Shown: positions 45,732 to 45,771 of the stretch, piece by piece | How the letters are laid out: every line of letters begins with the position of its first letter | Position numbering within the stretch: the first letter of the stretch is position 1 | NCBI RefSeq assembly: GCF_003019035.1 | Contig: NZ_CP027447.1 | Strand: one strand, 5' to 3' | Length of the DNA: 64,000 bases | Source of the DNA: Escherichia coli | GTDB taxonomy: Bacteria; Pseudomonadota; Gammaproteobacteria; Enterobacterales; Enterobacteriaceae | The notes under the pieces: model-generated | What the model was told of the DNA's origin: nothing | The model's input: only the letters and a program-made list of their open reading frames with translations | The model's database searches: none | Position numbers and translations under genes: made by a program

Positions 45732-45771
45732 GCTAAGGTTGAAGGGGCTGGAACGCCCCTTCAACCTTAGC
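45732..45771. other. Perfect 17-bp-stem hairpin immediately after the EspY-like stop
   Basis: GCTAAGGTTGAAGGGGC TGGAAC GCCCCTTCAACCTTAGC; no adjacent T-run on either strand, so not a canonical intrinsic terminator. Confidence 0.5.

Follow-up and report, generated by a model that had tools for sequence, protein, structure and literature searches.

Why does a long, perfect palindrome without the T-run of an intrinsic terminator stand immediately behind the gene for a type III secretion system (T3SS) effector in Escherichia coli? The question is raised by a 40-nt hairpin in a stretch of 64,000 nucleotides of E. coli DNA (contig NZ_CP027447.1), hereafter called the window, in which it abuts the stop codon of espY1. 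A preliminary description of this DNA had proposed that the hairpin and a related sequence upstream of espY1 bracket the gene as recombination or insertion boundaries of a cassette, or that the palindrome is an mRNA-stabilising 3' hairpin. Comparison with the paralogous gene espY2 and with longer copies of a neighbouring insertion sequence (IS) divides the palindrome into three parts. We consider it probable that the hairpin began as espY1's own Rho-independent terminator and was remodelled by a deletion that joined it to the IS and then by an extension of its stem through template switching.

Structure and Position of the Hairpin

44973 to 45731, + strand: coding sequence of espY1, encoding the T3SS effector EspY1 with pentapeptide repeats; split into yabP/yabQ in K-12
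45732 to 45771, + strand: the whole palindrome, with a 17-bp perfect stem and the 6-nt loop TGGAAC (inverted-repeat and fold analysis)

The inverted-repeat search delimits two arms (45732-45748 and 45755-45771) that are complementary at all 17 positions, with 6 nt between them and 10 G-C pairs in the stem; the perfect hairpin of the preliminary description is thus borne out to the base. The espY1 gene ends with CAATTATTGAATGAKCCAGAATAA, its stop codon TAA occupies 45729-45731, and the next base is already the first of the stem. When folded alone, the 40-mer has a predicted energy of -33.0 kcal/mol; the RNA fold of its 101-nt context reaches -41.7 kcal/mol (z = -6.1; 0 of 200 shuffles were as good). 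Hence, espY1 possesses a GC-rich stem-loop directly at its 3' side, as in an intrinsic terminator. No U/T-tract directly follows the stem on the + strand, where the tail reads AGTAGCGTGG (AGTAGCGTGGG follows), while a weak tail, TTATTCTG (5 T in 8), is found on the - strand, which scored terminator-like in the consensus scan. The earlier statement that neither strand carries a T-run therefore holds for the + strand and only roughly for the - strand. An Rfam 15 scan of 44400-46400 (E-values up to 10) gave only sub-threshold chance matches, none of which overlaps 45732-45771.

An Inner Hairpin Shared with the Terminators of espY2

45741 to 45762, + strand: inner hairpin GAAGGGGC-TGGAAC-GCCCCTTC, with an 8-bp stem, now without a T-run; matches the espY2 hairpins

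The espY2 locus is the spacer between sgrR and thiB, and the last part of the window, from about position 63661, contains the 5' part of this gene. Two divergent espY2 alleles exist, a full-length allele (L010) and the SCU-301 allele (L006); the P0132-type paralogue is an allele at this sgrR-thiB locus. While the protein word-index search with EspY1 returned only orthologues, the representative search supplied the paralogues. The 3' regions compare as follows, together with the antisense strand of the IS that is treated below:

espY1 (window): gene end CCAGAATAA; left flank GCTAAGGTT; stem GAAGGGGC; loop TGGAAC; stem GCCCCTTC; then AACCTTAGC AGTAGC…
espY2, full-length allele (L010): gene end CCAGAATAA; flank TAAATAGG; stem GAAGGGGC; loop AGGAAC; stem GCCCTTTC; then TTTTTTAAG (TTTTTT)
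espY2, SCU-301 allele (L006): gene end TCAGAATAT; flank GAAA; stem GAGGGGC; loop TGGAAT; stem GCCCCTTC; then the T-run TTTAATCTTATTT
IS antisense strand (reverse complement of L005, L023 and L024): loop region …GGCGGTAC; stem region GCACCTTC; then AACCTGAGC AGTG…

Common to espY1 and both espY2 alleles are a gene 3' end of the form …ATTATTGA…CAGAATA…, an 8-bp stem and a 6-nt loop. Between espY1 and espY2, the alignment of the gene 3' ends is significant (17 of 1000 shuffles were as good), and the inner 22 nt of the espY1 palindrome are identical to the full-length espY2 allele at 20 positions; relative to the SCU-301 allele, 20 of 21 nt agree, with one indel. In both espY2 alleles a T-run starts directly after the stem, and their hairpins fold at -16 to -18 kcal/mol, compared with -14.7 kcal/mol for the inner core of the espY1 hairpin alone. 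The espY2 hairpin is a textbook intrinsic terminator, and the inner hairpin of espY1 is, to judge from these alignments, the native intrinsic-terminator stem-loop of the espY family. It is not present in the more distant family members P0134, P0151 and P0160.

Past GCCCCTTC, the espY1 and espY2 sequences are unrelated, their alignment being matched or bettered by 773 of 1000 shuffles. An IS remnant downstream of espY2 was considered as a candidate and rejected on the same figure, since the anchored alignment is not significant.

A Right Arm Derived from an IS50/Tn5-like Transposase Gene

45763 to 46102, - strand: truncated IS50/Tn5-like element; transposase start at 45926, about 55 N-terminal codons, one frameshift, cut at 45763

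Rightwards from 45763, the window is homologous at the DNA level to the longer IS copies L005, L023 and L024. On the - strand, the alignment with L005 runs from a terminus at 46084-46102 that resembles the outside end (OE) of Tn5 to …GCTAAGGTTGAAGGGGCGTTCC, at which point the similarity ceases. Translation of the - strand from 45926 reads, with one frameshift, …LGDPRRARRLASLASSLAHHAGLS…SSHATAKVEGAF and matches the Pfam domain Tnp_DNA_bind (PF14706; E = 1e-7) over profile positions 5-50 of 58, with position 50 falling in the loop of the hairpin. In a longer copy elsewhere in E. coli (P0001, from L005) the match covers profile positions 5-58 of 58, and the protein continues …VEGAYRLIRNPSVSP (EGAYRLIRNPSVSP). 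The NCBI annotation (PGAP) places a pseudogene on the - strand at about 45748-45926, named 'transposase DNA-binding-containing protein' or 'IS4/Tn5 family transposase DNA-binding protein'. Only two close matches, of which one was useful, were obtained when the 68-amino-acid transposase fragment was used in a protein word-index search.

The terminal repeat of the remnant (46084-46102) reads CTGCCTCTTGTACATAAAT on the - strand and agrees with that of L023, CTGTCTCTTATACACAAAT, at 16 of 19 positions; L023 itself is a nearly full-length copy of 1,538 bp with termini that resemble the outside and the inside end (IE) of Tn5. These termini are named by comparison with the Tn5 OE/IE consensus. The remnant thus combines the Tnp_DNA_bind domain with Tn5-type terminal repeats, which places it among the IS50/Tn5-like elements of the IS4 family. 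The absence of a T-run behind the espY1 stem is explained by this IS sequence, which has taken the place of the T-run.

The remnant is 81-86% identical to other copies, and the coding sequences of espY1 and espY2 are about 75% identical; dating the junction by these levels of divergence is not decisive and does not separate a remodelled terminator from the alternative origin considered below.

Across the E. coli collection, members of this family occupy as many as 32 places in one genome and about 1,500 places on plasmids. In L005 (E. coli CP148282; 3845-5400 and 6083-7732), a longer decayed copy of this element lies in an island beside IS66 and IS3 genes and a gene of the ShET2/Toxin_15 family.

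The Junction and the Templated Outer Arm

45758 to 45762, no strand assigned: CCTTC, exact 5-nt match at which terminator and transposase antisense strand must have crossed over, inside a 13-nt patch
45732 to 45740, + strand: outer left arm GCTAAGGTT, copied in inverted form from the transposase-derived sequence at 45763-45771 (exact reverse complement)

Where the two parental sequences meet, they resemble each other: in the patch 45750-45762, the terminator core and the IS antisense strand match at 11 of 13 positions. The patch reads GAAGGGGCGTTCCAGCC in the window and GAAGGTGCGTAYCGCC in the three other IS copies. At the two diagnostic positions (45752, A; 45757, C), the window has the espY2-type base and differs from 3 of 3 other IS copies. 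With terminator-type bases at both positions, the crossover must lie between 45757 and 45763, inside CCTTC. A short sequence common to both parents is therefore present at the junction, as in a deletion at a short match, with the terminator parent reconstructed from espY2. The patch is unique and has the observed orientation, since no other match of at least 11 of 13 is found between the 22-nt core and either strand of the 1,538-bp IS. A match of 11 of 13 or better somewhere in the IS is obtained with 27% of shuffled cores, so that the junction patch does not require an unlikely coincidence.

The 9 nt of the outer left arm of the hairpin, GCTAAGGTT, are the exact reverse complement of the IS-derived AACCTTAGC at 45763-45771, and they have no clear counterpart in the espY2 alleles, which carry TAAATAGG or GAAA at this place and share at most about five scattered bases with it. 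By our estimate, a 9-nt complement would arise by chance with a probability of ~4e-6, so that the outer left arm must have been copied from the right arm. The new bases are thus the reverse complement of the neighbouring arm and extend a shorter hairpin, as in a quasi-palindrome template switch. Such template switching turns imperfect inverted repeats into perfect ones in E. coli (PMC7202029) and has been proposed to keep inverted repeats perfect in proteobacterial genomes (PMC5941160).

The three-part composition of the palindrome and the position of its junction follow directly from these alignments.

A Proposed History of the Hairpin

The order and the mechanism of the remodelling events we infer as follows. 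At the start, espY1 would have been followed by an 8-bp terminator with a T-run, reconstructed as GAAGGGGCTGGAACGCCCCTTC+TTTTTT, and by an IS50-like element downstream whose transposase gene faced espY1. A deletion would then have fused the descending arm of the terminator with the transposase antisense strand at codon ~55, at the place where GGAACGCCCCTTC in the terminator and GGTACGCACCTTC in the IS share the exact CCTTC of 45758-45762; it would have taken away the T-run together with the IS inside end and some 90% of the transposase gene. In a second step, the nascent strand may have snapped back on the 8-bp stem, so that the hairpin primed the copying of the 9 nt AACCTTAGC as GCTAAGGTT before the strand returned to its template. 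The quasi-palindrome would thereby have become the perfect 17-bp palindrome that reaches the stop codon. Alternatively, both steps may have taken place in a single serial template-switch event.

Several points weigh against this history. An ancestral espY1 allele, with the 8-bp stem and a T-run or with an adjoining intact IS, is absent from 5,426 complete E. coli genomes, from a scan of 100,044 species and from the Joint Genome Institute (JGI) metagenomes; the ancestral state is consequently deduced from the paralogue only. The left flank of the espY2 hairpin, TAAATAGG, has a few bases in common with GCTAAGGTT, which puts the earlier sequence at this place beyond reconstruction. As to function, the + strand reads found downstream of the hairpin in K-12 (see below) could start at another promoter. 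Finally, the similarity of 11 of 13 nt between terminator and transposase could mean that the whole palindrome descends from the transposase gene.

In such a fold-back origin, a strand that had broken or switched template within the transposase gene would have folded onto itself and copied at least 17 nt of its own sequence, and the espY2 hairpins would descend from the same sequence, through an event before the split of the two genes or through gene conversion. The homology to the transposase, in DNA as well as in protein, indeed covers the right arm and extends 4-5 nt into the loop (…KVEGAF; GCTAAGGTTGAAGGGGCGTTCC in comparison with GCTCAGGTTGAAGGTGCGTACC), and the next stretch reads as the precise reverse complement of the 17 nt before it. 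Both espY2 alleles, however, have only the inner 8-bp stem, run into their T-runs at once and contain no detectable IS sequence. The model would require a T-run to have evolved de novo in espY2 just where the 8-bp stem stops; moreover, at the two diagnostic positions of the patch the window carries the base of the terminator. The levels of divergence leave the timing undecided in either direction. A simple version, in which the whole palindrome is an inverted duplication of transposase sequence, was our initial model and was downgraded in view of the T-run hairpins of espY2 and the diagnostic bases. On the same grounds, together with the lack of IS sequence at espY2, a fold-back origin is less parsimonious than a remodelled terminator, and we regard it as unlikely.

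Copy Number, Distribution and Conservation

The preliminary description had named a search for further copies of the palindrome as a check, and a common dispersed repeat unrelated to effector loci as the outcome that would speak against its reading. The search found a single-copy, locus-specific palindrome. The 40-mer occurs once in the window (chance expectation: none), and a 60-nt query around it has matches in 2,080 of the 5,426 E. coli genomes, exclusively at the espY1/yabQ (djlA-rluA) locus; the '2 places per genome' reported in this search are the two strands of one palindrome. A tblastn search against plasmids returned only the same locus, in mislabelled chromosomes. A scan for the espY 3' end together with the hairpin core in one genome each of 100,044 species gave an E. 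coli espY1 contig misbinned as Collinsella and four unrelated matches. This 1.6-kb contig (L021; JAIJJM010000692.1), labelled as a Collinsella metagenome-assembled genome, carries E. coli espY1 with the hairpin and reflects contamination during binning.

These data bear on the idea that the palindrome belongs to a dispersed family, such as repetitive extragenic palindromic (REP) sequences, bacterial interspersed mosaic elements (BIMEs), or a miniature transposable element. Such membership might be suspected because REP-like palindromes occupy the same intergenic region in genomes with an empty site. With a single copy in the window, a single locus in each of the 2,080 E. coli genomes, no Rfam family that matches the hairpin, and no related hit beyond the misbinned espY1 contig in the species-wide scan, the dispersed-repeat reading is already refuted by copy number, and we give it practically no chance. 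The empty-site palindromes are called REP-like by comparison with the REP consensus.

Within E. coli, the hairpin varies little. At least 99% identity over the 60-nt query is found in 2,023 records, and the 40-mer is identical among K-12, O157:H7 EDL933 and the window. Among 33 sampled copies from genomes and metagenomes, 27 are canonical, three have an A to G change in the loop, two an additional G in the loop, and one an A to G change in the stem; this sole stem variant keeps a G·U pair in the + strand RNA. Six variant copies (five in the loop, one in the stem) are too few for a test of covariation in the stem.

The espY1 coding sequence is 84% to 100% identical among E. coli strains, and the hairpin with the IS remnant ~98-100%. 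Indels occur in a 15-nt tandem repeat of espY1 that encodes pentapeptide units (45000-45731, especially 45536-45610), and a frameshift in K-12 gave rise to yabP/yabQ.

The Locus and the Boundaries of Its Variable Insert

44828 to 44842, + strand: GCTTAAGGTTGAGAG, the supposed related sequence, judged a chance similarity (word and alignment tests) outside the feature
44897 to 44981, + strand: upstream and 5' block common to espY1 and espY2, the left end of the conserved espY unit (local alignment)
46066 to 46087, - strand: terminator hairpin of rluA, AAATCCCCGAGTCCGGGGATTT, with a T-run of nine Ts, inside the IS remnant (terminator scan)

The gene order in the window is lptD, djlA, a variable insert, rluA and rapA. 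About 3,350 genomes have an empty djlA-rluA site, with a spacer of 116-149 bp that contains REP-like sequence, and the genome alignment of empty with occupied sites shows that the difference spans the whole stop-to-stop interval 44679-46136. Hence, neither 44828 nor 45732 is a boundary of presence and absence. The insert is a mosaic of an IS256/IS1414-type miniature element, a stretch at 44776-44896, the espY unit and the IS50-like remnant.

In the preliminary description, the hairpin and the upstream sequence containing AAGGTTGA were read as paired boundaries, of the kind of attachment sites or transposon ends, that bracket an espY1 cassette. The upstream sequence GCTTAAGGTTGAGAG does exist at 44828-44842; it shares with the hairpin arm the exact 9-mer TAAGGTTGA or, with one gap, 13 of 14 nt (44826-44839), and the locus is indeed polymorphic for presence and absence and rich in IS debris. 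The similarity, however, stays within chance. Elsewhere in the 64 kb, 3.4% of segments of the same size also have a word of at least 9 nt in common with the arm. When 44679-44972 is aligned locally, with gaps, against the hairpin/IS region, the top alignment, CTGC(T)TAAGGTTGA, has a score of 21, which 14 of 100 shuffles equalled. The motif AAGGTTGA alone occurs four times in the window, against an expectation of 1.8, and the region 44679-44972 has no significant similarity to the IS. GCTTAAGGTTGAGAG lies 53 nt to the right of the IS256-type element (which ends at 44775) and 55 nt to the left of the start of the espY1/espY2 homology at 44897, and it overlaps a weak -35-like hexamer, promoter-like sites not being enriched in this region. 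Alignment with the espY2 locus shows homology from 44897 onwards, to the right of GCTTAAGGTTGAGAG; the inner hairpin is common to both loci, and the outer left arm has no clear counterpart at espY2. Therefore, the hairpin marks a junction, that of espY1 with the IS remnant, and no boundary of a cassette, and espY1 is not bracketed by a pair of related sequences. Since the real IS end lies at 46084-46102, away from the hairpin, the true boundaries are 44679 and 46136, no partner repeat of the hairpin exists upstream, and the palindrome is single-copy in every genome that carries it, we consider paired recombination or transposon ends very improbable.

The left end of the conserved espY unit is well defined: the block 44897-44981 aligns locally with both espY2 alleles at a score of 86, and the score of its 60-nt core was reached by 0 of 100 shuffles. 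This 85-nt block (44897-44981; ~63563-63648; L010 180-265) extends across the start codon and is ~80% identical between espY1 and espY2, compared with 38% for the proteins. Such a block suggests a shared promoter, regulatory or secretion-signal module.

The miniature element of ~96 bp (44680-44775) directly follows the djlA stop codon; it is made up of both terminal inverted repeats of an IS1414-like element of the IS256 family, with arms at 44680-44705 and 44750-44775. In L053, the 3' end and right terminus of IS1414 align with 44716-44778 of the window, and their reverse complement with 44680-44736. At the other side of the insert, rluA appears to use an IS-derived terminator in strains that bear the insert, while REP-like sequence follows rluA in strains with an empty site. 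A hairpin homologous to this rluA terminator is found near the outside end in L005 and L023, without a T-run.

Present Function of the Hairpin

Its descent from a 3' terminator makes a role of the hairpin at the mRNA 3' end plausible, and today it is probably a weak terminator or a stabiliser of the 3' end of the RNA. Because the U-tract is lost, the hairpin is predicted probably to terminate poorly on the + strand. The stable 3' stem-loop would stall exonucleases, and the remaining transcripts would end at Rho-dependent sites inside antisense rluA. On the - strand, the hairpin followed by TTATTCTG may weakly terminate transcripts that leave the IS remnant. The preliminary idea of an unusual terminator or 3' hairpin was thus right with respect to origin, by descent from an espY2-type terminator; a standard terminator the hairpin is not, as its T-run is gone. 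Curated 3' ends from Term-seq include none at K-12 positions 59,28x-59,33x (PMC7815308, supplementary file 1), where yabP/yabQ may be too poorly expressed to yield any. The same study reports a Rho termination region at K-12 + strand position 60,116, inside antisense rluA; the 800 nt before it contain 280 reads (PMC7815308, supplementary files 1 and 2). Region and reads fit read-through past the hairpin and do not prove it.

Was the long stem kept or fixed by selection, as an mRNA-stabilising 3' hairpin or as a bidirectional terminator that offsets the lost U-tract? The question is one of present function, and a selected role would be compatible with the proposed origin. K-12, O157:H7 and the window have the same stem, while espY1 coding sequences vary by up to ~16%; among the 33 sampled copies the loop is changed in five, and the one substitution in the stem preserves a G·U pair; the - strand version scores terminator-like, and the hairpin descends from a terminator. 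The adjoining IS pseudogene, however, is almost equally conserved, with a difference of ~2.4% over 331 nt between K-12 and the window, which predicts about one change per 40 nt, and template switching alone keeps palindromes perfect (PMC5941160). With a dead transposase that differs this little next to it and a process that keeps its arms matched, the invariance of the stem is no evidence of selection. Furthermore, no 3' end has been mapped here in K-12, and a terminating ribosome would have to unwind the stem that starts at the stop codon. A selected functional RNA is therefore possible in our view, but doubtful.

A further reading holds that the remodelling was no neutral scar and rewired the locus, with espY1 transcripts reading through into antisense rluA and ending only at Rho-dependent sites; we think this improbable. 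If true, expression of the effector would be tied to rluA, or the stop codon would become a control point sensitive to Rho or translation, and the case would represent a documented natural multi-nucleotide template-switch mutation fixed across a species.

Comparison with Known Systems and Meaning of the Finding

Like the espY2 intrinsic terminators, espY1 has a GC-rich 8-bp stem with a 6-nt loop a few nt after the stop codon, with a homologous inner 22 nt; it differs from them in that IS sequence replaces the T/U-tract and the stem comprises 17 instead of 8 bp, beginning at the stop codon. The new arm resembles the products of quasi-palindrome template switches (the Ripley model; the thyA and lacZ quasi-palindrome reporters; PMC7202029; PMC5941160) in being the reverse complement of sequence beside the priming hairpin. 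While reported events of this type usually concern one or few mismatches, 9 consecutive nt seem to have been copied at espY1 and fixed throughout the species, an event deduced from sequence comparison. Short-match deletions by illegitimate recombination near IS elements share with it the truncation inside the transposase gene and the short junction match (5 nt exact, 11 of 13 imperfect), but in contrast to anonymous junctions of this kind, the partner was the arm of a terminator, so that a chimeric hairpin arose.

As in IS50/Tn5 (IS4 family), the remnant encodes a Tnp_DNA_bind N-terminal domain, and related copies have the OE-like terminus CTGTCTCTTATACACA and the IE-like terminus CTGTCTCTTGATCAGATCT. 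Only ~340 nt of the element are left in the window, unlike in a full IS50/Tn5; the hairpin is no IS end and is unrelated to the hairpin intermediate of Tn5 excision. By analogy with REP sequences and other 3' stem-loops that stabilise mRNA, a stable stem-loop without a U-tract at a gene 3' end would be expected to block 3'-to-5' exonucleases; unlike REP sequences, the espY1 hairpin is present in a single copy and has no REP consensus.

The hairpin is an ordinary scar of evolution that neatly illustrates known processes; it is no recombination site, and it does not change the understanding of T3SS effectors or of transcription termination. Its value is that of a worked example, in which the 40 nt of one palindrome can be traced to three sources: the gene's own terminator, the IS, and the templated copying of an arm. 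It explains the terminator without a U-tract after espY1 (yabQ in K-12), and it cautions that such palindromes are easily misread as recombination sites. On the history proposed here, it would show how an IS-associated deletion and template switching can make a long hairpin with no T-run out of a standard terminator.
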